NCBI GenBank assembly: GCA_031375135.1
Contig: JANMHK010000188.1
Location: forward strand, 1-42,692
Length of the DNA: 42,692 nucleotides
Direction of reading: 5' to 3'
Source of the DNA: Sphingobacteriales bacterium
GTDB taxonomy: Bacteria; Bacteroidota; Bacteroidia; Chitinophagales; Chitinophagaceae
Every line of letters begins with the position of its first letter. Within the stretch, counting starts at the first letter, position 1. Shown one piece after another: positions 25,857-37,238 of this stretch. The notes below the pieces were generated by a model. It saw only the letters and a program-made list of their open reading frames with translations. It did not search any database and was not told the origin of the DNA. The translations under genes were made by a program, and so were the position numbers.

Positions 25857-25864
25857 TAGATTTG
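25857..25864 (+). promoter_or_regulatory. -7 promoter element for the metal operon
   Basis: TAGATTTG 8 nt upstream of ATG 25873. Confidence 0.55.
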
Positions 25865-25872
25865 TCGTGTTG

Positions 25873-26247
25873 ATGAAGCGTTTCACAGCCATATTATTAG
25901 CCCTGATCTATCTGGCCACCACCACTGGCATTTTGATCAACACCCATTATTGTATGGGCGAAGTTTCGGGCGTGGCTTTTGGTCAGAAGAACAATGCTAC
26001 CTGTGGTACCTGTGGAATGGATAACGAAGGTTGTTGCCACGATGATCTGCAGGTGATTAAGTTGACCGCAGACCAACATTTTTCCTTTATTTCAACTGAC
26101 GTTCCTCATGCTGAAGCCCTTGCAGCAGATCACCAGACCGAGGAGCAGCGATCTGGTCTGTTATTCAGGCAAGCCCTTAAAATCAGGAACCATTCGCCGC
26201 CATTAACCTACTCCAGAAATACATTATTCTGCGTTTACCGGATCTGA
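25873..26247 (+). CDS. HYC_CC_PP-family protein, candidate metal-responsive leader ORF
   Basis: N-terminal hydrophobic segment, HYCMG, CGTC, GCCHD, HSPP and terminal FCVYRI. Confidence 0.8.
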   Translation: MKRFTAILLALIYLATTTGILINTHYCMGEVSGVAFGQKNNATCGTCGMDNEGCCHDDLQVIKLTADQHFSFISTDVPHAEALAADHQTEEQRSGLLFRQALKIRNHSPPLTYSRNTLFCVYRI

Positions 26248-26306
26248 TCATGATATAGTTTTCCTGAGTATTCAGTTCAATTATTATCATTTTAAAAAAT
26301 CAGATC
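26241..26306 (+). promoter_or_regulatory. Predicted RNA stem-loop linking the leader stop codon to the next translation start region
   Basis: GATCTGAT (26241-26248) is complementary to ATCAGATC (26299-26306), with a nested ATGATA (26250-26255)/TATCAT (26285-26290) pair. Confidence 0.5.
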
Positions 26307-26798
26307 ATGAAATCAAATATTATTTTAAGCATCCTGACCCTGTTCATCTTCACTTCAGTGTCAGCACAGAAAAAAGAAACCGTAAAAGTTTGGGGTAATT
26401 GTGGCATGTGCCAGAAAACCATTGAAACGGCTGCAAAATCAGCCGGAGCTTCAGCAGCAGAATGGAACACAGAGACCAAGGTATTGACCGTTGCCTATAA
26501 AGAGAAGAAAACCGACCTCACCAAGATAGAGCAGGCCGTAGCGGCATCTGGTTATGACACCAAGAATTTCACCGCTTCAGATGACGCTTATAACAAGCTT
26601 CACAGCTGCTGCCAGTACGATCGCAAGGCGGGGGCAACTGCATCTTCCGAAAAAGCTGATTGCTGCAAAGATGGCAAATGTGACAAAGACCATAACGAGT
26701 GTGCCAATTGCGAGAAATGCAAAGACGGCAAATGCGCTGATTGTTGCAAAGACGGCGTTTGCTCTACAGGCAAAGACTGCTGCAAGAAAACCAAGTAA
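26307..26798 (+). CDS. Exported heavy-metal-associated (HMA) domain protein with Cys-rich tail
   Basis: Signal peptide (VSA-Q), GNCGMC, HSCCQY, and 12 Cys in the last ~45 aa. Confidence 0.88.
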   Translation: MKSNIILSILTLFIFTSVSAQKKETVKVWGNCGMCQKTIETAAKSAGASAAEWNTETKVLTVAYKEKKTDLTKIEQAVAASGYDTKNFTASDDAYNKLHSCCQYDRKAGATASSEKADCCKDGKCDKDHNECANCEKCKDGKCADCCKDGVCSTGKDCCKKTK

Positions 26799-26816
26799 TA
26801 ATTAAATTAGTAAACG

Positions 26817-26841
26817 GGGGTGGTGCGTTGCATCACCCCTT
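26817..26841 (+). terminator. Intra-operon hairpin (weak terminator or mRNA stabiliser)
   Basis: GGGGTGGTGC-gtt-GCATCACCCC followed by TTAATATATTTT. Confidence 0.55.
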
Positions 26842-26853
26842 AATATATTTTCA

Positions 26854-27402
26854 ATGAAGAAGATCATCCTCATTGTGTTTCTGGGCGTGCTGACCATACC
26901 AGGAATAAGCCAGATCGCGTCGGCCAAATTGCAAGCCAGCGGACTCACTTGCGCCATGTGCGCGAAAGCGGTATATAGCAAACTGGAAAGCCTTCCTTTT
27001 ATTGATAAAATTGATACGGATCTTAATGGGTCTGCTTTTTTGATTGACTTTAAGCAGGGAGTACCTGTTGATATAGATGCGATAAAAAACAAAGTGGAAG
27101 ATGCAGGTTTCAGTGTAGCGATGTTGGACCTAAACGCATCCTTCCATGAAGTTGCTGTAAAAAAAGATGAGCATATCAACTATCACGGCCTTGTACTCCA
27201 TTTTATGGGTGGGAAAGAACAAACCATCCATGGAGACAAAACGCTGCGTGTGATTGACAAGCATTACACAACTGCCAAAGAGCAGAAGAAGTTCAATGGG
27301 CTTACAGATATGGAATGCTTCAAAACCGGTGTAGCTGCTGCCTGTTGTGCTAAAAACGGAAAAGGAGCATCAGAAAGGATCTATCATGTAATGATCAACT
27401 GA
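26854..27402 (+). CDS. Exported HMA-domain protein
   Basis: Signal peptide, GLTCAMC, VEDAGFSV, C-terminal C..CC and RIYHV. Confidence 0.85.
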   Translation: MKKIILIVFLGVLTIPGISQIASAKLQASGLTCAMCAKAVYSKLESLPFIDKIDTDLNGSAFLIDFKQGVPVDIDAIKNKVEDAGFSVAMLDLNASFHEVAVKKDEHINYHGLVLHFMGGKEQTIHGDKTLRVIDKHYTTAKEQKKFNGLTDMECFKTGVAAACCAKNGKGASERIYHVMIN

Positions 27403-28223
27403 TGAAGCGGCTTCTTATTTTCGCTTGCGTCCTGTTTTTCGGGACTGCTGAAGGGCAGGAGTTGTATGTATTTACCGGGCCTGCTTCCAATATGCCTGCG
27501 GGTGCAGGCGGATTAAAATATGCCGCCAAATTACTGGAAGCATCAGATGGAAGAACTGACCAACGGCATATGCTGGAGTGGCAAATGGGTTTTAGTAAAA
27601 AATGGATGACCCATGTCAGTACTTCATTCTCCAATATGTACGGCGATTACCTGCGATGGGAATCTGTCAGAAGCTACACCCAATACCGGTTTTTATCGAT
27701 CGATGATGTACATAGGCATTTCAGGGCAGCTGCTTTCGCTGAGCTCGCCTATAGTGTAAACAGTCCCAGGTATGATGAGCTGTCGCTGGATGGCGATCAA
27801 AGCGGGGTAAGTACAGGCATCATCCTAACCCAACTTCTGCATAAGCTGGCAGTCTCGTCAACGCTTTCATATACATTATCTTTGCAGGACCGTATTGAGC
27901 ATATGGGCATTCATAATTATAACTATAATGCCTTTAATTACAGCCTTTCGGCAGGCTACCTGTTGTTTCCCCGGAAGTATAACGGCTATGGGCAGACGAA
28001 CTTTAATCTATACCTGGAGTTATTGGGAAGTAGGGCCCTCGACAAACAGGCAGGGTTCGTGGATCTTGCTCCTGCAGTACAGTTTATCTTTTCCAGCAGT
28101 ACGAAATTGAACCTGGGTTACAGGTTCCAGCTGGCAGGCGACATGCAAAGGATGGCCAATAACAGTTTTCTTGTCAGTATTGAACGTACCTTTCTGAACG
28201 TCATGAACCGAAAAAACAAATGA
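27402..28223 (+). CDS. Hypothetical outer-membrane beta-barrel protein
   Basis: Signal peptide, QELYVFT.PASN, and alternating amphipathic strands. Coupled to the upstream gene (TGATG). Confidence 0.6.
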   Translation: MKRLLIFACVLFFGTAEGQELYVFTGPASNMPAGAGGLKYAAKLLEASDGRTDQRHMLEWQMGFSKKWMTHVSTSFSNMYGDYLRWESVRSYTQYRFLSIDDVHRHFRAAAFAELAYSVNSPRYDELSLDGDQSGVSTGIILTQLLHKLAVSSTLSYTLSLQDRIEHMGIHNYNYNAFNYSLSAGYLLFPRKYNGYGQTNFNLYLELLGSRALDKQAGFVDLAPAVQFIFSSSTKLNLGYRFQLAGDMQRMANNSFLVSIERTFLNVMNRKNK

Positions 28224-28297
28224 TCCCTCTAGTGAATTATATAAAATCAGTAGCCAAATGGATCAGGCGGTTCTTTAAGAAAGACTGCTGCGCCTAG
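28220..28297 (+). CDS. Unannotated 25-aa ORF MIPLVNYIKSVAKWIRRFFKKDCCA
   Basis: ATGA overlap with the upstream stop. Its TAG directly abuts the MFS ATG, so it fills the gap exactly. Confidence 0.5.
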   Translation: MIPLVNYIKSVAKWIRRFFKKDCCA

Positions 28298-29455
28298 ATG
28301 CGATCCCCGTTGAGCAAAACCATATGGATGCTTTCACTGGTTAGCCTGTTTACGGATATGGCCAGTGAGATGCTGTATCCCGTGATGCCGGTTTACCTGA
28401 AGGCTATCGGTTTCAGCGTGATCTGGATAGGCATACTGGAAGGAGTAGCCGAAGCAGTGGCGGGATTAAGTAAAAGTTATTTCGGGGCCTGGTCCGATCA
28501 CGCGGGCAAACGTCTTCCTTTTGTTCAATTCGGTTATGCACTCAGTGCATTGTCTAAACCCATGATGGGTTTGATGACCCAGGTCTGGTGGATCTTTTCG
28601 GCCAGGACCATAGATCGCCTGGGCAAAGGGATCAGGACAGGGGCAAGGGATGCGCTGCTGAGTGCAGAAGCAACTCCGGCAACCAAGGCTGAAGTGTTCG
28701 GGTTTCATCGGTCCATGGACACGCTTGGCGCAGTGCTCGGTCCTTTGTTTGCCCTGGTTTGGCTGCTTTATCATCCCCAACAATATCTTCCACTATTCAT
28801 CATTGCATTCATACCCGGCTTGTTGGCCATAGCGCTGACTTTTCTAGTTAAAGAAAAGAGCATGGAACCTGGAGTAAAACAAAGGGTTTCTTTACTGGAA
28901 GGATTTAAATTCTGGAAAACTTCCGGATCATCCTACCGAACGGTGGCGGGCGGTTTGCTGGTTTTTGCATTGATCAACAGCAGTGACGTGCTGCTGTTGC
29001 TTAAGATCCGCGAAGCAGGTCATCCTGATCATGTAGTCATAGGCATTTATATCTTCTATAACCTGGTATTTTCTTTGCTGGCATATCCCATAGGACGACT
29101 GGCCGATCGGGTAGGACTGAAGCGGATATTCGTTATAGGTCTTTTTTTCTTCACTATTACTTACGCCGGTTTCGCTTGGGCTAGCCAAATGCTTGTGTTT
29201 GTCGGTTTGTTTTTTTGTTACGGAGTATATGCCGCCTGCACAGAAGGTATTTCAAAAGCCTGGCTCACCAATATCTCGGACCCCCGGCAAATTGGCACGG
29301 CCATCGGCACCTATACTGGTTTCCAGAGTATTGCGTCTCTGTTTGCCAGTAGTGTGGCCGGGTTCATCTGGTACTATGCAGGTCCCGAGGCCGCCTTTCT
29401 TTCTTCCGCCATTGCCAGCTTTGGTGTATTGGTTTACTTTATTTCTAAGACCTGA
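28298..29455 (+). CDS. MFS transporter
   Basis: About 12 TM helices, SLFTDMASEM, DRLGKGIR...RDAL, and GRLADRVG motif A. Confidence 0.92.
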   Translation: MRSPLSKTIWMLSLVSLFTDMASEMLYPVMPVYLKAIGFSVIWIGILEGVAEAVAGLSKSYFGAWSDHAGKRLPFVQFGYALSALSKPMMGLMTQVWWIFSARTIDRLGKGIRTGARDALLSAEATPATKAEVFGFHRSMDTLGAVLGPLFALVWLLYHPQQYLPLFIIAFIPGLLAIALTFLVKEKSMEPGVKQRVSLLEGFKFWKTSGSSYRTVAGGLLVFALINSSDVLLLLKIREAGHPDHVVIGIYIFYNLVFSLLAYPIGRLADRVGLKRIFVIGLFFFTITYAGFAWASQMLVFVGLFFCYGVYAACTEGISKAWLTNISDPRQIGTAIGTYTGFQSIASLFASSVAGFIWYYAGPEAAFLSSAIASFGVLVYFISKT

Positions 29456-29491
29456 CCATCGCCCATTGTTTGGGGTATCAAAAATAAATAC

Positions 29492-29527
29492 TATGTTTGA
29501 CTAATAATTAATTTAGACAAGTCTAAA
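29492..29527 (+). promoter_or_regulatory. -7 promoter element plus DtxR/MntR-like operator
   Basis: TATGTTTG (29492-29499), then the palindrome TTTAGAC-AA-GTCTAAA (29512-29527) 3 nt before the ATG. Confidence 0.7.
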
Positions 29528-29530
29528 AAT

Positions 29531-31696
29531 ATGTTTAGGTCTGGCTTTTTATACGTCATGTTCTTGTTGCTGTCCATCCCCGGCTATGGACAGGCCATTG
29601 GCATGAAGGATACTATGGCCATCAAAAATTTATCCCGCGGTCAAGTGAAATCAGGTGTAGCGCATTTGAATAACCTTACTAGCGACCCTGCCGATACGGT
29701 GCCTGGTTTTATAAAACCAGACATGGATGAAATTGTGGTATCGGGAACTTTGAAACCCATGCGAAAACTGGAAAGCCCGGTTGCGGTTGAAGTGTACTCC
29801 TCCCAGTTTCTTAAGAAAAATCCGGTCCCCAGTATTTTTGAAGCCCTTCAAATGGTCAACGGGGTTCGGCCCCAACTGAATTGTAATGTCTGTAACACTG
29901 GTGATATTCATATCAATGGTCTGGACGGTCCTTATACCATGGTTACCATCGATGGTATGCCCATTGTCAGCGGACTCTCCACAGTCTATGGATTGTTCGG
30001 CATTCCTAATCAGATGATCGATCGGGTGGAAGTGGTGAAAGGACCTGCATCCGGACTGTACGGCTCGGAGGCAGTAGGCGGACTCATCAACATCATCACA
30101 AAGTCTCCCTTGAAAGCACCCTTGGTGTCTGCGGATATTATGGCTACTTCATGGCAGGAGTTCCAGGCCGACCTTTCTGTTTCATTCAAGGCCGGCAAAA
30201 AAACGCGCAGCATGTTGGGCGTTCATGTGTACAATTACAGCAACCCTGTAGACCATAACGGAGATGGTTTTACGGACATGACCCTGCAAAAACGTTTTTC
30301 ATTGTTCAATAAATGGAGCTTCCTTAGAAAGGATGACCGCGTTGCGGATATGGGTATTCGCCTATATCATGAGAACCGCTGGGGTGGCGAAATGAACTGG
30401 AGCAATGCTTTCCGCGGTGGTGACAGTTTGTATGGCGAAAGCATCTATACCAACAGGGCAGAATTTATCGGGCGCTACCAGCTTCCCATGAAAGAGCACC
30501 TGCTGTTTTCCTGGTCATACACTGCTCATAAACAGGATTCTTATTATGGACGCACGCCGTTTATGGCGGATCAGAAAATTGCGTTCGGACAATTAACCTG
30601 GGACAGATCCTATGGTGAACACAGTTTGCTAACCGGCCTGGCCCTTCGCTATAATTTTATGGACGATAATACGCCTGCCACGGCTGATCCTCTTACCGGC
30701 AAGAACAAGGAGAACATCAACTGGTTGCCAGGGATATTTATACAGGATGAGATCAAATTGAATGAACGAAATAACCTGCTGCTGGGTTTGCGATACGACC
30801 ATCACCAGGAACATGGTTCTATTTTTACACCGCGTGTTGCATGGAAATGGAAGGCCGTGAAAAACGGAGTTCTTCGCCTGAATGCGGGCACCGGGTTCAG
30901 GGTAGTGAATATTTTTACTGAAGATCATGCCGCACTAACTGGCGCAAGAACAATTGAGATCAAAGAAGAGATCCGCCCGGAAAAAACCTACAACGTCAAC
31001 CTCAATTATAACCATCGCCTCGTTTTTTCAAATTCATTCCTGACCATGGATGCCAGTGCCTGGTTAACCAGGTTCTCAAACCAGATCATCCCTGACTATG
31101 ATACCGACCCCAACAAGATCATCTACCAGAATTTAAAAGGATATTCGGTTTCCCGTGGCCTTAGCCTCAACGTCGATTATAACATCAATAACCGCTTTCG
31201 TATGATGGCGGGAACTACCATACAAGATGTATTTATCAAAAATGAAAAACAGAATCCGGTAAGACCCGTACTCGTGGAAAAATGGAGTGCTGTTTGGACC
31301 TTGTCTTATAGTTTTCCCGTGCAGGGCATCAACATTGACTATACCGGCAATATTTATGGTCCTATGCGATTGCCTCTGGCCGGTGCGCTTGATCCTCGCC
31401 CTGCCTATTCGCCAGTTTGGTCCATTCAAAACCTACAGGTCAGCAAAAAAATAAAACGGTTCGAATTCTATTGCGGCATCAAAAATCTTCTGAACTGGAC
31501 TCCTGATCGATCTGTTCCATTTTTGATCGCGCGTTCAGAGGATCCTTTCGATAAACAAGTGCAATATGATTCCGGGGGCCAGATCCTTTCTACTCCTCAA
31601 AACCCCTATGCACTGAGCTTTGATCCAACCTATATGTATGCCCCCAACCAGGGTCGAAGAGTGTTTGTGGGACTACGCTTTGCCCTTCAACAGTAA
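29531..31696 (+). CDS. TonB-dependent receptor, probably for metal uptake
   Basis: EIVVSGT TonB-box-like motif, plug with NCNVC, IDRVEVVKGPASGLYGSEAVGGLINIITK, and C-terminal GLRF. Confidence 0.93.
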   Translation: MFRSGFLYVMFLLLSIPGYGQAIGMKDTMAIKNLSRGQVKSGVAHLNNLTSDPADTVPGFIKPDMDEIVVSGTLKPMRKLESPVAVEVYSSQFLKKNPVPSIFEALQMVNGVRPQLNCNVCNTGDIHINGLDGPYTMVTIDGMPIVSGLSTVYGLFGIPNQMIDRVEVVKGPASGLYGSEAVGGLINIITKSPLKAPLVSADIMATSWQEFQADLSVSFKAGKKTRSMLGVHVYNYSNPVDHNGDGFTDMTLQKRFSLFNKWSFLRKDDRVADMGIRLYHENRWGGEMNWSNAFRGGDSLYGESIYTNRAEFIGRYQLPMKEHLLFSWSYTAHKQDSYYGRTPFMADQKIAFGQLTWDRSYGEHSLLTGLALRYNFMDDNTPATADPLTGKNKENINWLPGIFIQDEIKLNERNNLLLGLRYDHHQEHGSIFTPRVAWKWKAVKNGVLRLNAGTGFRVVNIFTEDHAALTGARTIEIKEEIRPEKTYNVNLNYNHRLVFSNSFLTMDASAWLTRFSNQIIPDYDTDPNKIIYQNLKGYSVSRGLSLNVDYNINNRFRMMAGTTIQDVFIKNEKQNPVRPVLVEKWSAVWTLSYSFPVQGINIDYTGNIYGPMRLPLAGALDPRPAYSPVWSIQNLQVSKKIKRFEFYCGIKNLLNWTPDRSVPFLIARSEDPFDKQVQYDSGGQILSTPQNPYALSFDPTYMYAPNQGRRVFVGLRFALQQ

Positions 31697-31710
31697 ATTT
31701 CAGCAGGGAA

Positions 31711-31743
31711 TGTGACCTAAGTCAAGCATTCAATCAGTTGAAT
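31711..31743. promoter_or_regulatory. Two short palindromes upstream of the RND operon
   Basis: TGAC-ctaa-GTCA (31713-31724) and ATTCAA-tcag-TTGAAT (31728-31743). Confidence 0.3.
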
Positions 31744-31762
31744 AAATTATCTTCAGCGGCTT

Positions 31763-34700
31763 ATGCTGAATAAGATCATTCGTTTTTCCGTCAGGAATAA
31801 ACTGATCATCGGTTTGTTGACCATTGGATGGATCATCTGGGGTATCCTGGAGTTGATCAGACTGCCCGTAGATGCCCTGCCCGACATCACCAGTAACCAG
31901 GTTCAGGTATTCACCGTAACGCCTGCACTGGCTTCCCCTGAGGTAGAACGCGTGATTACTTTCCCCATTGAACAGGCCTGCTCAAATATTCCCGGCATCA
32001 AAGAATTCAGGTCTATTTCGCGTTTCGGGCTTTCCGTAGTGACACTTGTTTTTAGCGACAATACCGATATCTATTGGGCCCGCCAGCAGGTTTCAGAAAG
32101 GTTGGTGCGTGTGCGGGATGATATTCCTAAAGGGGCAGGCATTCCCGAATTAGCACCTTTAACTACAGGGCTGGGCGAAATATATCAATACATACTTAAG
32201 CCTGCAAAAGGATACGAAAGCGTATTCGGATTGGATGAGCTCAGGAGCATACAGGATTGGATCGTCCGGCGCCAGCTGCTGGGTACGCCCGGGGTTGCCG
32301 ATGTAAGCAGTTTCGGGGGCTGGCTCAAACAGTACGAAGTGTCCGTGCAGGCCGACAAGTTAAAGTCCATGGGCGTGACGATTGCCGACGTGTTTGATGC
32401 ACTGGAAAAGAATAACCAGAATTCGGGCGGCGCCTATATTGAAAAGGGGAATGAAATGCTTTTCATTCGCACCGAGGGTATGACCGGAACGATCGAAGAC
32501 ATTGAAAAAATCCGGATCAAAACCACGCCTGCCGGATTCCCGGTCTATGTGGGCAGTGTGGCAAAAGTTCGTATCGGCCATGCAGTGAGGTATGGCGCGA
32601 TGACCTACGGTTCACAGGGAGAAGTGGCAGGGGCGGTAGTACTGATGCTGAAAGGGGATAATGCCTCCAAAGTTGTGGCCGATGTAAAACGACGTATCGA
32701 GAAGATCAAAGAGAACCTGCCTAAAGGTGTGCAGCTGATTCCGTATTACGATCGTACCAAAATTGTAAACCGCGCGATACATACGGTCAGGAACAATTTG
32801 TTGGAAGGGGCCCTGATCGTCATATTCATCCTTGTTATCTTCCTGGGCAATCTAAGGGCCAGTTTGATTGTGGCGTCAGTGATTCCCATGTCGATGCTTT
32901 TTGCTGTTAGCATGATGAATTTATTTGGCGTGTCCGGAAACCTGATGAGCCTGGGTGCACTTGACTTTGGGCTGATCGTGGATGGTGCCGTGATCATTGT
33001 AGAAGCCGTGATCCATCGCCTCTATCACAGGCATTTATATGATGGTCTTATTTCGCAGGACGATATGGATCGTGCCGTGGAGACTTCTTCTTCGAGAATG
33101 ATGAATGCCGCGGTATTCGGACAGGCCATCATCCTGATCGTCTATCTTCCCATCCTGTCCCTGACGGGCATTGAAGGAAAAATGTTCAAACCCATGGCGC
33201 AGACCGTCATCTTTGCGCTACTTGGAGCGTTTATCTTGTCGCTCACCTACGTGCCCATGATGACCGCGGTATTTATGGGAAAGAAGGTGAAAGATGGCGA
33301 AGGAATAACCGACCGTATGATGAATGGAATTAAATCGTTTTATGCCAAATCGCTGGAAAAAATATTCCGCTTCCCCAAAACAGTCATGTTGATCTCCATC
33401 GCTTTATTTGTTTTTTCAATCATCATTGCCACGCGCTTGGGCGGTGAATTCATTCCAAAACTGGAAGAAGGTGATTTTGCTGTGGATGCAAAATTACTCA
33501 CTGGTACAACGTTGACGGTAAGTGTTCAAAATTCTCTGCAAGCAGCAGCTATTTTAGAAAAATTTCCGGAGGTAGAAAGAATTGTAAACCGCATCGGCAG
33601 TAGCGAAATTCCAACAGATCCTATGCCCGTTGAGATGACGGACATTATGATCACCTTGAAAGAAAAATCAACATGGACATCAGCCAGCTCATACGAAGAA
33701 CTCGCCAATAAAATGAGTGCCGCATTAAAAGATCTGCCCGGTCTTACAACCGGATTCCAATATCCTATTCAAATGCGTTTCAATGAATTGATCGCAGGAG
33801 CCCGTCAGGATGTGGTGTGTAAAATATTTGGTGAAAACCTTGATACCCTGGCCAGTTATGCTGCAAAACTGGGTGCCACCATTCATGGCATTGAAGGCGC
33901 CCGCGATATTTATGTAGAAACGATCACAGGACTGCCCCAGATCGTGATCCGTTTTAAAAGGGATGCGATGGCGATGTACGGACTTGATATGTCTGATGTG
34001 AACCGAACAATAAGATCTGCGTTTGCAGGTGAATCGGCGGGTAAAGTATATGAGAACGAAAGACGATTTGACCTGGTGGTGAGGTTGTCCGAAACTGCCC
34101 GCCGCAATCTGGACGATGTTCGGCAGTTGCTGATCCATACGGAGAAAGGGACACAGATTCCATTGTATGAAGTGGCAGATATCAAGATCGAGCAGGGGCC
34201 TAATCAGATCCAGCGTGAGGATGCCAAAAGGCGGATCATTGTTGGATTCAATACAAGGGGCCGGGATGTGGAGACCATAGTAAATGAATTACAGCAAAAG
34301 ATCACTGAGCATATGCCGCTTCCCGCGGGATACTATATCGTTTATGGGGGGCAATTTGAAAATCTGGTGGAAGCAAAGCAGCGCTTGACTATTGCTGTGC
34401 CGATAGCACTGGCACTGATCTTCCTGATGCTTTATTTTGCTTTCGGATCACTCAAATACGGGTTGCTGATTTTTACGGCAATACCCCTTTCTGCCATTGG
34501 TGGAATTCTTTCCCTATGGATCCGCGGAATGCCTTTCAGTATTTCAGCAGGAGTGGGTTTCATCGCCTTATTCGGTGTGGCCGTTTTAAATGGTATCGTG
34601 TTGATCACAGAATTCAATCGATTAAAAAATGAAGGCATGACCGATGTGAAGAAGATCATATTGGAAGGCAGTTTACTCAGACTTAGGCCTGTATTGATGA

Positions 34701-36106
34701 CTGCTTCCGTGGCTTCTTTTGGATTTCTTCCGATGGCCCTCAGTCATTCAGCGGGTGCCGAAGTGCAACGTCCCCTGGCTACCGTGGTGATCGGTGGTTT
34801 GATCACGGCAACTTTGCTTACCCTAGTGGTGCTGCCTTTGCTCTACTACTGGTTCAGCGGTGAGCGTAAAACGGGAAGACCGGTCACCTTGTCTGTCATT
34901 TTCCTGTTGGGCAGTTTTACAGTAGTTGCGCAACCCACCGGCAAGCCCATAAGCCTGGACTCCGTGCTGTCCATCGCCAGCAGGCAGAATCTGATGTTGG
35001 AAACAAACAGGAGATCCACGGATTACTGGAACGCCCTCATGTCCAGCACCTTTGATCTGCCTAAAACCCAGATCGGGGCCGAATATGGAAACATAAACAG
35101 CTTAAATAAAGACACCAGGCTGTATATCAACCAAACCTTCATGTTGCCGGCAGTTTACCAGAGCAGAAAAGCATTATACGCTGCTCACCTCACTGCAGGT
35201 AAGGCAGAGATCCGACAAAAAGAAACCGAGTTGAACCGGGAACTTCGCGTCAATTACTACCACCTGCAGGACCTTTTAGGGAGGTATCAATTGCTTCAGG
35301 TACTCGATTCCGCCTATAAAGGATTTATTGAAGCAGCGGCATTGAGGTATAAAACAGGTGAGTCCTCTTTACTGGAGAAAACTTCTGCGGAAACAGAATA
35401 TTCCCGCCTGGTGTTGCAACGCAGGGAACTGTTGGCCGATATCGAGATCCTGCAGGAAAAGAATAACTACCTGTTACGGACAAACGAAAAGCTGATACCT
35501 GATCATATCGATGACAGTATCTATTATTTCCCGGGATCAACAGACAGCCTCTCACATCCCATGCTCGCTTATTGGCAATCGAAGCAGGCGGTTCATGAAG
35601 CAGAAATAAAGCATGAAAAAACGGCTACGCTTCCTGATTTCAATGTTGGCTACAGTAATCTGTCCATTGTTGGATGGCAGACGCCCGACGGGGTAACTCA
35701 GAAATACTATGGTGCCGGCGACAGGTTCAGTACGGTTAGTGTTGGTATCGGTGTTCCCTTATTCAACGGTTCCGTAAAAGCAAGGATGCAAGCCAGTGGA
35801 GTTAGTCGTGATATTGCCCGGCTCCAGGAAAAACAGGTGATGGAATCAATGAAGAGCCGGCAAAAGCAGGTGCTGGCTGAATATGAGAAGTACCGGCTAA
35901 GTGTGAATCATTTCCGGCAGACAGGTCTCAAGCAGGCTGATCAGATCATTAGCCAGTCTATTAAAGCGTACAGGGCAGGCCAGTTAAGTTATATGGAATG
36001 GATCAACCTGATGAACCAGGCCATTACCATCCGTATGGGATATTTGGATGCGCTGCTTGCATTAAGAACCACAACCGCAGAACTGGAATTTATAAATGGC
36101 AAATAA
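31763..36106 (+). CDS. czcA: CusA/CzcA-family heavy-metal RND transporter fused to a C-terminal TolC-like outer membrane factor
   Basis: DALPDIT, GALDFGLIVDGAVIIVE, RLRPVLMTA and EVQRPLATVVIGG motifs, followed by ~390 aa of OEP-like helical region. Confidence 0.93.
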   Translation: MLNKIIRFSVRNKLIIGLLTIGWIIWGILELIRLPVDALPDITSNQVQVFTVTPALASPEVERVITFPIEQACSNIPGIKEFRSISRFGLSVVTLVFSDNTDIYWARQQVSERLVRVRDDIPKGAGIPELAPLTTGLGEIYQYILKPAKGYESVFGLDELRSIQDWIVRRQLLGTPGVADVSSFGGWLKQYEVSVQADKLKSMGVTIADVFDALEKNNQNSGGAYIEKGNEMLFIRTEGMTGTIEDIEKIRIKTTPAGFPVYVGSVAKVRIGHAVRYGAMTYGSQGEVAGAVVLMLKGDNASKVVADVKRRIEKIKENLPKGVQLIPYYDRTKIVNRAIHTVRNNLLEGALIVIFILVIFLGNLRASLIVASVIPMSMLFAVSMMNLFGVSGNLMSLGALDFGLIVDGAVIIVEAVIHRLYHRHLYDGLISQDDMDRAVETSSSRMMNAAVFGQAIILIVYLPILSLTGIEGKMFKPMAQTVIFALLGAFILSLTYVPMMTAVFMGKKVKDGEGITDRMMNGIKSFYAKSLEKIFRFPKTVMLISIALFVFSIIIATRLGGEFIPKLEEGDFAVDAKLLTGTTLTVSVQNSLQAAAILEKFPEVERIVNRIGSSEIPTDPMPVEMTDIMITLKEKSTWTSASSYEELANKMSAALKDLPGLTTGFQYPIQMRFNELIAGARQDVVCKIFGENLDTLASYAAKLGATIHGIEGARDIYVETITGLPQIVIRFKRDAMAMYGLDMSDVNRTIRSAFAGESAGKVYENERRFDLVVRLSETARRNLDDVRQLLIHTEKGTQIPLYEVADIKIEQGPNQIQREDAKRRIIVGFNTRGRDVETIVNELQQKITEHMPLPAGYYIVYGGQFENLVEAKQRLTIAVPIALALIFLMLYFAFGSLKYGLLIFTAIPLSAIGGILSLWIRGMPFSISAGVGFIALFGVAVLNGIVLITEFNRLKNEGMTDVKKIILEGSLLRLRPVLMTASVASFGFLPMALSHSAGAEVQRPLATVVIGGLITATLLTLVVLPLLYYWFSGERKTGRPVTLSVIFLLGSFTVVAQPTGKPISLDSVLSIASRQNLMLETNRRSTDYWNALMSSTFDLPKTQIGAEYGNINSLNKDTRLYINQTFMLPAVYQSRKALYAAHLTAGKAEIRQKETELNRELRVNYYHLQDLLGRYQLLQVLDSAYKGFIEAAALRYKTGESSLLEKTSAETEYSRLVLQRRELLADIEILQEKNNYLLRTNEKLIPDHIDDSIYYFPGSTDSLSHPMLAYWQSKQAVHEAEIKHEKTATLPDFNVGYSNLSIVGWQTPDGVTQKYYGAGDRFSTVSVGIGVPLFNGSVKARMQASGVSRDIARLQEKQVMESMKSRQKQVLAEYEKYRLSVNHFRQTGLKQADQIISQSIKAYRAGQLSYMEWINLMNQAITIRMGYLDALLALRTTTAELEFINGK

Positions 36107-37238
36107 CATGTTGAGATATTTAATAATAGCCACGATCTTATTGACTGCATCCTGTAAAAACGCAGAGAAGGATCAGCCCGTCACAGACGAAGTTGAAGCC
36201 TCAATATCAACGGTGGTGCTGACAGCAGAACAGATCAAAACTGCAGAACTTCGTTTCGGCGGATTAGAGAAGACCAAGCTGGCAGATCTGATCACGGTAA
36301 ACGGGGTCGTGGACGTTCCCCCGCAAAATCTGGTCTCAGTAAGTTTCCCGCTCGGCGGATATCTGAAACGAACAGAATTACTGCCGGGCAAGAACGTGAG
36401 AAAAGGAGAAGTGATCGGGATCATGGAAGACCAGTCTCTGGTGCAGTTGCAGCAAGACTATCTTGTGGGTAAAGAAAAATTACATTACCTGGAGCAGGAT
36501 TTCAACCGCCAGGAAGAGTTGAATGAAAGTAATGTCAATGCAACCAAGGTTTTTCAGCAGGCTGCAGCTGAATTAGGAAGCCAAAAAGTGATGATGCGGG
36601 CCATGGGGGAGAAACTGCGGCTGATCAATATTAATCCCGATAAACTCACAAGCGAAAATCTGTCGAGGAGTGTTCCCCTGTATTCTCCGATCAACGGTTT
36701 CGTCTCTAAGGTCTTTGTAAACCCAGGCAAATATGTTCAGCCTTCCGATGTATTGTTCGAGCTGATCGATCCCGATGATATTCATGCGGCATTGACGGTA
36801 TTTCAGAAAGACATTAGCAAACTGGCAGTAGGCCAGGAAGTAGTCATCAATTTTATTGATGAACCTCAGAAATTCTACCAGGGAAAAGTCATACTGGTCA
36901 ATCGCAGCCTCGATGAAAATCGAAGCGAAGTGGTGCATTGTCATTTTACGGAACATCCCAAAGATCTTCACCCGGGGATGTTTCTACAGGCAAAAATCAA
37001 AACTTCCCCACGTGAGGTGTTAGCGTTGCCGGAAGAGGCCGTTGTTGGATTCCAGGGCCATGAATATATCTTCATTGTGGGGGAAGCCGGAAAATTTGAG
37101 ATCGTGGAAGTAGAAACCGGGATAAGAGAAAAAGGCTTCATTGAAATAAAAAACGCTGGATCCTTTCCTCCTACTGCAAAAATTGTTTTAACCAATGCCT
37201 ATGCCGTTTTAGGAGCGATGAAAAACAGTGGGGAATAG
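36096..37238 (+). CDS. RND efflux periplasmic adaptor subunit (CzcB/CusB-like lipoprotein)
   Basis: Lipobox TASC, VDVPP, SPINGFV lipoyl-like motif and PGMF. Overlaps czcA. Confidence 0.9.
   Translation: MANNMLRYLIIATILLTASCKNAEKDQPVTDEVEASISTVVLTAEQIKTAELRFGGLEKTKLADLITVNGVVDVPPQNLVSVSFPLGGYLKRTELLPGKNVRKGEVIGIMEDQSLVQLQQDYLVGKEKLHYLEQDFNRQEELNESNVNATKVFQQAAAELGSQKVMMRAMGEKLRLININPDKLTSENLSRSVPLYSPINGFVSKVFVNPGKYVQPSDVLFELIDPDDIHAALTVFQKDISKLAVGQEVVINFIDEPQKFYQGKVILVNRSLDENRSEVVHCHFTEHPKDLHPGMFLQAKIKTSPREVLALPEEAVVGFQGHEYIFIVGEAGKFEIVEVETGIREKGFIEIKNAGSFPPTAKIVLTNAYAVLGAMKNSGE

Follow-up and report, generated by a model that had tools for sequence, protein, structure and literature searches.

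HYC_CC_PP leader ORFs and a stop-to-start helix ahead of metal-handling genes in Bacteroidota: a candidate metal-sensing switch acting in cis

The window analysed here, a 42,692-nt stretch of DNA from a Sphingobacteriales bacterium (contig JANMHK010000188.1), carries a small ORF with a predicted export segment directly ahead of a run of metal-handling genes, which raises the question of whether this ORF controls the next gene in cis and, if so, at which of its codons a ribosome would have to sit. The original prediction proposed a leader-peptide switch analogous to the proteobacterial copper leaders CruR and CutF, with a hairpin covering the downstream start region.

The leader ORF, its neighbours and its promoter

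The ORF at 25873-26247 scored 43.9 bits against the NCBIfam model NF047658 (HYC_CC_PP; curated cut-off 28); it had no match in the Pfam release searched, and its Atlas look-alikes point to DUF8199 of Pfam 38. All the motifs named beforehand were found in it, namely H25-Y-C27, C44xxC47, C54-C55, H107-S-P-P110 and the terminal CVYRI. The start coordinate first given, 25857, holds a promoter box, whereas the ORF itself begins at 25873. The features needed below are as follows.

25857-25864, + strand: TAnnTTTG, the -7 box of the Bacteroidia housekeeping sigma factor, read from the sequence; the transcript would then carry 3-4 nt ahead of the ATG
25873-26247, + strand: HYC_CC_PP leader ORF, 124 aa
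25873-25926, + strand: N-terminal hydrophobic helix (residues 2-18; AlphaFold2 helix), predicted signal peptide or anchor
25945-26037, + strand: Cys/His cluster H25-Y-C27, C44xxC47 and C54-C55, a putative metal site judged by conservation
26038-26190, + strand: linker, variable in sequence and conserved in length
26191-26202, + strand: HSPP motif, with PP at 26197-26202
26203-26247, + strand: conserved C-terminal tail running to [FY]-[RL]-I-stop, whose last codons double as the 5′ arm of the helix
26230-26260, + strand: 5′ arm of the stop-to-start helix (predicted folding), core 26241-26248 across the stop codon
26279-26315, + strand: 3′ arm (predicted folding), core 26299-26306, covering the A-rich stretch where the next gene is initiated together with its first codons
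26307-26798, + strand: first downstream gene, putatively controlled, encoding an exported CopZ/MerP-like HMA protein whose tail is Cys-rich
26854-37238, + strand: remaining co-oriented cluster from profile matches, taken as gene order only

The first downstream gene begins 59 nt beyond the leader stop, and its MerP/CopZ-like product was matched by PF00403 at an E-value of 6e-5, just under the cut-off. Its metallothionein-like tail (26640-26798) has repeated CCKDGKC-type units and varies in length among kin. It is followed by genes for a second HMA protein, an unknown protein, an MFS transporter, a TonB-dependent receptor, a CusA/CzcA-OEP fusion and an RND adaptor; the fusion (31763-36106) is a 1447-aa CusA/CzcA pump joined to an outer-membrane efflux (OEP) domain. 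Between both HMA genes, an inverted repeat rich in G+C with an A/T run after it (26816-26839) is possibly a terminator or an mRNA-stabilising hairpin, and would split the cluster. An Rfam covariance-model search of the window element returned only two chance-level matches (E 2.5 and 4.2), and no relatives of the leader were found on viral contigs.

The promoter box agrees with the published consensus TAnnTTTG and its 4-5 nt spacing (PMC6847099). A box within -30 to -5 of the start was present in 56 of 90 family loci, compared with 131 of 1724 long ORFs of the same genome, and in most of the 56 it sits 4-10 nt ahead of the start. The leader is thus likely to be first on a near-leaderless housekeeping transcript, so that control would be left to later steps. 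The only mapped start, that called by Rockhopper for the relative Fjoh_1450, lies 30 nt upstream, away from the near-leaderless position expected, possibly owing to read-through from upstream genes.

A profile search placed the family in 133/150 genomes of the host's family, 32/36 of its genus and 55/201 across the phylum, with up to five copies per genome and no members in two large families of the phylum (0/39 and 0/33 genomes). From 131 loci, 126 leader ORFs were recovered, of which 121 lie directly upstream of, and co-oriented with, a partner gene; the other five (two without a called partner, three with an unclear start) were dropped. Reduction of the 121 at <55% identity left 95 loci, with four starts corrected by hand; these are best-scoring matches and not a random draw, and kin among them are non-independent. 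Behind the leader, among 94 loci, stands a gene for an HMA protein (51), a CusA-type pump (12), an HMBD protein (7), a TonB receptor (7), a DUF3347 protein (4) or another protein (5), with no match in 8, so that a metal chaperone, pump or receptor follows in 81 of the 94.

The window's genome holds a second, divergent leader under the HMM cut-off (L002; G000:C249, minus strand 1468-1965), which has a His-rich loop, no HYC, 73 residues from CC to its end, a PP and an F-Q-I end, together with a very strong stop-to-start helix on an 18-bp scale within 130 nt after the ORF. Only a 63-aa ORF lies behind it, and an exported protein with a CPMH-type metal motif, identified by eye, starts 336 nt on; its first partner may therefore be broken. 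This leader suggests a superfamily wider than NF047658.

Pairing between the leader stop and the next start

The predicted complementarity between the leader's stop region and the 8 nt before the next ATG was recovered in folding as an 8-bp helix (26241-26248 : 26299-26306) with pair probabilities of 0.87-1.0. The nested stem expected to enclose the initiation region was likewise predicted, as an inner helix at 26250-26260 : 26279-26290 with a small hairpin inside (26264-26275), and a weaker extension (p 0.5-0.65) joins 26230-26236, in the C-V-Y codons, to 26310-26315, the second and third codons of the downstream gene. By itself, this hairpin is modestly above chance: the 81-nt structure had a z-score of -2.33, with 6 of 200 shuffles equally good; a 150-nt segment around it reached only -0.77 against shuffles; and among 132 ordinary gene pairs of this genome, the window pair included, 8 form a duplex as strong.

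That the helix is more than chance is indicated by a cross-locus test over the family and not by this single-locus score. In this test, each stop region (-15 to +15) was paired with its own downstream start region (-30 to +3) and with the start regions of other loci, using the 76 of the 95 non-redundant loci with a spacer of at most 135 nt. The results showed that matched pairing averaged -9.10 kcal/mol against -5.22 kcal/mol across loci, and that a locus's own pairing surpassed 95% of cross-locus pairs in 35/76 loci, compared with 3-5/76 for six control window pairs in which either window was shifted into coding sequence, and with 14/132 for ordinary gene pairs of the same genome. The window locus itself had a z-score of -3.79. 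The stop-to-start helix is thus real across the HYC_CC_PP family and upholds the cis-leader layout, with 41/76 loci below the top-5% mark and about a quarter no better than the cross-locus median; among the 19 loci with spacers above 135 nt, no excess was found (2/19). Absolute duplex energies separated poorly (≤ -10 kcal/mol in 36/76 family loci and 34/132 same-genome pairs, p 0.03) because starts in the control pairs were assigned only roughly and have a higher G+C content, and the matched-versus-cross test was therefore used.

In averaged pair probabilities, the 5′ arm extends from about -17 to +12 around the end of the stop, which is about one terminating-ribosome footprint, and peaks at the stop codon (0.52-0.54 versus 0.10-0.14 in controls). 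The 3′ arm covers -30 to +9 around the ATG with a peak at -13 to -9, the region that governs Shine-Dalgarno-free initiation in Bacteroidia, which is described as tuned by adenines at -3, -6, -12 and -13 together with low structure (PMC6847099). The predicted helix covers an A-rich start region lacking a Shine-Dalgarno sequence, as had been supposed. In two loci from other classes of the phylum (L128, L130), a Shine-Dalgarno-like AGGAG is buried in the same helix, its complement coming from the leader's last codons or from the spacer. As a separate observation, the subfamily L014, L016, L019, L020, L023, L096 and L122 shares a mid-spacer hairpin, rich in G+C, with a short conserved motif directly after it, and its stop-to-start pairing is often weak; hairpin and motif may form an independent element for pausing or processing.

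Folding and covariation across HYC_CC_PP loci had been named as the check on this helix; the locus-specific pairing came out clearly, whereas strict covariation was weak. The helix letters vary between subfamilies, and the nearest kin offer one clean compensatory change (ATC:GAT in the window, ATT:AAT in L034 and L102). Among 79 Flavobacterium spacers, the helix is conserved yet nearly invariant, with 1/10 pairs compensatory. Separately, an ATC/ATT covariation test gave p 0.036, or 0.18 once redundancy was removed.

Published ribosome profiling of Flavobacterium johnsoniae in rich medium (PMC6847099, Table S2) bears on the state of the start. Fjoh_1450 and Fjoh_1451 were identified by synteny only, the Flavobacterium locus L223 being matched to Fjoh_1446-1454 through gene strands and lengths (696, 456, 537, 447, 399, 2007, 345 against 342, 681 and 1236 nt). 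The leader Fjoh_1450 had 822 RNA and 288 ribosome reads (Ribo/RNA 0.35), whereas Fjoh_1451 had 611 RNA and 16 ribosome reads (0.026), the second lowest ratio among the 82 genes on one of the table's 62 pages (median 0.42). From the leader to the next gene, ribosomes per mRNA fell 13-fold, RNA per nucleotide 6.8-fold and output about 90-fold, the figure for Fjoh_1451 being a gene-level count of 16 reads in one medium. A translated leader before a nearly silent gene fits a default-off switch, and in this synteny-matched relative the expectation that downstream translation is off by default was borne out. Beyond the silent receptor gene, the HMA gene Fjoh_1452 is itself translated, and a start site of its own is predicted for it (PMC6847099, Table S2).

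These counts weigh on two simpler accounts. Plain translational coupling, in which the helix ties downstream synthesis to that of a partner protein and nothing is sensed, is compatible with all the helix evidence and with the codon bias of the tail described below. We consider it improbable, because translation of the leader is average and the next gene falls 13-fold below it per mRNA and about 90-fold below it in output, the partners are unrelated proteins, and the fixed linker length and the PP are left unexplained. Transcriptional polarity, through Rho-dependent termination or decay in the spacer, as in CruR, and with the helix secondary, would account for the fall in RNA coverage and for the 19/95 long-spacer loci that lack excess pairing. 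The drop in ribosomes per mRNA nevertheless exceeds the drop in RNA, and untranslated mRNA yields polarity anyway, so that polarity as the main cause appears very improbable.

Ribosome position and the leader peptide

The place at which a ribosome would open the helix was modelled by stepwise removal of the RNA under it and computation of the cost of opening -20 to +6 of the next start. At the window locus, the modelled cost stayed at 10-12 kcal/mol with the ribosome anywhere from PP to the sixth-last codon, and fell from 10.9 to about 2.6 kcal/mol (2.5-2.8) only when it stood at the last two codons or the stop. Over the family, a relief of at least 2 kcal/mol was obtained in 49/76 loci with the ribosome at the stop and in 2/71 with the ribosome at PP, the controls giving 13 and 15 of 132 ordinary pairs. 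The modelling supports the caveat raised at the outset, that PP lies some 40 nt ahead of the hairpin (38 nt 5′ of the core helix) and that the opening ribosome would have to sit at the terminal codons or stop. Direct opening by a stall at PP was rejected on the same count of 2/71; if PP is the arrest site, the helix stays shut and the logic is inverted relative to CutF.

In the leader peptide, among 97 sequences, C27, C47, C54 and C55 are invariant and H25 is conserved in at least 90%. The distance from CC to the end has a median of 74 residues (sd 2.2; 71 in the window leader, 73 in 80/80 Flavobacterium loci) and that from CC to PP a median of 56 (sd 2.1; 53-61), the HYC-to-CC spacing being looser (sd 4.0). 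Because the two deviations are so similar and the spacing regression slope, 0.59 on a scale from 0 (stop-anchored) to 1 (PP-anchored), falls midway, spacing singles out neither PP nor the stop as the arrest site. The terminal motif [FY][RL]I-stop is kept in 91/95 loci. Arg at -2 is drawn from both codon boxes (AGR 33, CGN 22), and the tail is therefore selected as protein too; the bias of its V, F and I codons (GTT 28/41, TTC 57/73, ATT 51/75) implies that part of the tail conservation serves RNA pairing and not arrest. A disulfide between a tail Cys and the odd N-terminal Cys was considered and rejected, since the two do not co-occur (among two-Cys loops, a tail Cys is present in 35 and missing from 41). 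The hydrophobic C-terminus could also act as a protease tag (cf. PDZ proteases).

In the main rival account, arrest would take place at [NH][AS]PP, 25-40 nt before the helix, which would stay shut until metal bound to the Cys cluster released the ribosome, as in CruR, to reach the stop and open the helix. A canonical PP is present in 84/95 loci within its 53-61-residue distance of CC, and the YYG subfamily holds CC-to-PP at 57-59 while its tail lengthens (CC-to-end 78-80). Among the 89 members with a PP, NAPP (27), HAPP (11) and HSPP (8) recur and RAPP is absent from the contexts listed; the three resemble the NAP/NSP motifs and the validated HAPP arrest motif, at which the ribosome stalls when the first Pro occupies the P site (PMC10987492). 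A ribosome at PP leaves the modelled opening cost unchanged, and such a checkpoint would turn pumps and chaperones on with metal. On the other side, PP is lost or shifted in 11/95 loci, most of which keep the helix and the length (7 of 10 short-spacer loci without a canonical PP retain a stop-opened helix and a CC-to-end distance of 71-77), NAP/NSP arrest is described only with the stop in the A site (PMC10987492), and a passing ribosome would open the helix only briefly. We regard a checkpoint at PP as a strong rival, though less probable than a dwell at the terminal codons, and note that it may combine with a dwell at the terminal codons as the first stage of the same switch. In a clade of the window's genus (L040-L043, L047-L055, L058-L062), the canonical PP is lost and a PP stands 9-10 residues from the end, at the helix edge; these loci are natural variants for distinguishing the two mechanisms.

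The AlphaFold2 model of the leader (pTM 0.46) opens with an N-terminal helix, places HYC on a beta-hairpin and a strand behind CC, and leaves the C-terminal half extended; Foldseek found no match in the PDB at E ≤ 0.001. The beta-hairpin and strand around the Cys cluster are the confident part of the model, and linker residues are partly conserved within Flavobacterium, both of which would suit a periplasmic or membrane protein that binds metal and acts by itself in trans, the helix being incidental. The pTM of 0.46, the extended half without a fold match, the position directly upstream and co-oriented in 121/126 loci, the several copies per genome and the locus-specific pairing all argue against such a protein, and we hold it to be the most improbable of the accounts considered.

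Known leaders and the proposed switch

The closest counterpart is CutF, encoded before cutO in Rhodobacter capsulatus (PMC9973294; 10.1101/2025.02.05.636593), which like HYC_CC_PP is a small exported Cys-motif leader with a Pro-Pro near its C-terminus, stands first in a metal operon and acts in cis on a stem-loop over the next initiation site. CutF bears CxxxC and a spacing of 45 residues, whereas HYC_CC_PP has H-Y-C, CxxC and CC, with PP following after 55-56 residues and the end after about 73; its PP lies 14-16 residues before the stop, beyond reach of the helix, and its helix has the leader's own stop at its centre and covers an A-rich start without a Shine-Dalgarno sequence. CruR of Bordetella pertussis (PMC9426467), whose arrest is confirmed (PMC12992588), shares the fixed spacing from Cys motif to a PP-type motif and the position before metal transport genes. 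Unlike HYC_CC_PP, it works through Rho-dependent termination, switches its operon off with copper and carries RAPP three residues from its end.

The analogy to these DUF2946 leaders held for the cis-leader layout and not for family membership: PF11162 (DUF2946) matched neither the window protein (E 0.1) nor any of 97 members (E 0.01), and the RAPP about 45 residues after CxxC that marks CruR and CutF is replaced by a PP at a median of 56 residues from CC. The SecM- and CutF-type arrangement, a stem masking the initiation region and overlapping the footprint of the leader ribosome, is present in the predicted folding. The rule-based list D of CutF-like proteins (Ozturk 2023; PMC9973294), as defined there, takes proteins of <150 aa with an N-terminal Sec signal, a co-oriented neighbour within 1000 nt and a PP in the last 15 residues, and is 40% Bacteroidota after normalising. 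The window leader has the length and the neighbour, its hydrophobic N-terminal helix is predicted, and its PP (residues -16/-15) falls just outside; PP lies inside the last 15 residues in 18/95 members, so that some HYC_CC_PP subfamilies may be included in that list.

A second precedent comes from SecM-type peptides and the Bacteroidota NSP-stop, NAP-stop and RQH peptides, described in PMC10987492 as sharing an export signal and a C-terminal motif and as unmasking the next start through a stalled ribosome, as is proposed for HYC_CC_PP. The NSP-stop and NAP-stop peptides of Bacteroidota arrest with the stop codon in the A site (PMC10987492). These peptides precede secA, secDF or yidC, serve as monitors of secretion and have Pro or RAPP-like motifs at their ends; the HYC_CC_PP chain, by contrast, ends in [FY][RL]I and bears a Cys cluster. 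HYC_CC_PP would thus combine stem unmasking as in CutF with a ruler as in CruR, outside DUF2946, and is best read, by analogy, as a Bacteroidota counterpart of both, gated at the terminal codons.

In the mechanism that we propose, the helix would hide the start of the next metal-handling gene by default. Sec export would bring the Cys cluster, about 70 residues from the peptidyl-transferase centre, just into the periplasm, a distance at which periplasmic folding of LepB is described to pull (10.1101/2021.02.06.430026). Metal bound by the cluster on the exported nascent chain, probably of the Cu(I)/Ag(I) type to judge from the ligands and neighbours, would set the dwell time of the ribosome, either arresting it on the [FY][RL]I-stop tail or slowing its termination there. 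A ribosome dwelling on the last codons or the stop would unwind the helix and free the next start, so that chaperones and pumps would be on with metal. We give this cis leader, with a metal-set dwell at the terminal codons, slightly less than an even chance; that HYC_CC_PP is a sensing cis switch of some kind, by terminal dwell or by a checkpoint at PP, we consider quite probable. The full picture, of a phylum-wide, DUF2946-independent group of metal-sensing arrest peptides that stall at termination on [FY][RL]I-stop, read periplasmic copper through a 73-residue tether and melt a helix on their own stop to switch Shine-Dalgarno-free initiation, possibly after a PP checkpoint, is a tentative one.

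HYC_CC_PP, a family named for its motifs alone, heads genes for copper-type chaperones, pumps and receptors, yet a described function is lacking: a literature search, with most subscription papers outside its coverage, returned no account of a function, helix or regulatory role for HYC_CC_PP, DUF8199 or NF047658, further searches on Fjoh_1451 and on copper in Bacteroidetes returned no description of the family, and the accessible part of PMC12914433 does not treat Bacteroidota leaders. The proposed switch is directly testable in F. johnsoniae with Fjoh_1450/Fjoh_1451, for which profiling data and reporters exist. If true, it would add a new arrest motif at termination and would explain how metal genes are tuned post-transcriptionally in Bacteroidota, whose ribosomes ignore Shine-Dalgarno sequences and from which RAPP/RGPP leaders before copper genes are reported absent. 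In the full, tentative picture, HYC_CC_PP would be the main built-in copper switch of Bacteroidota, carried on a near-leaderless housekeeping transcript.
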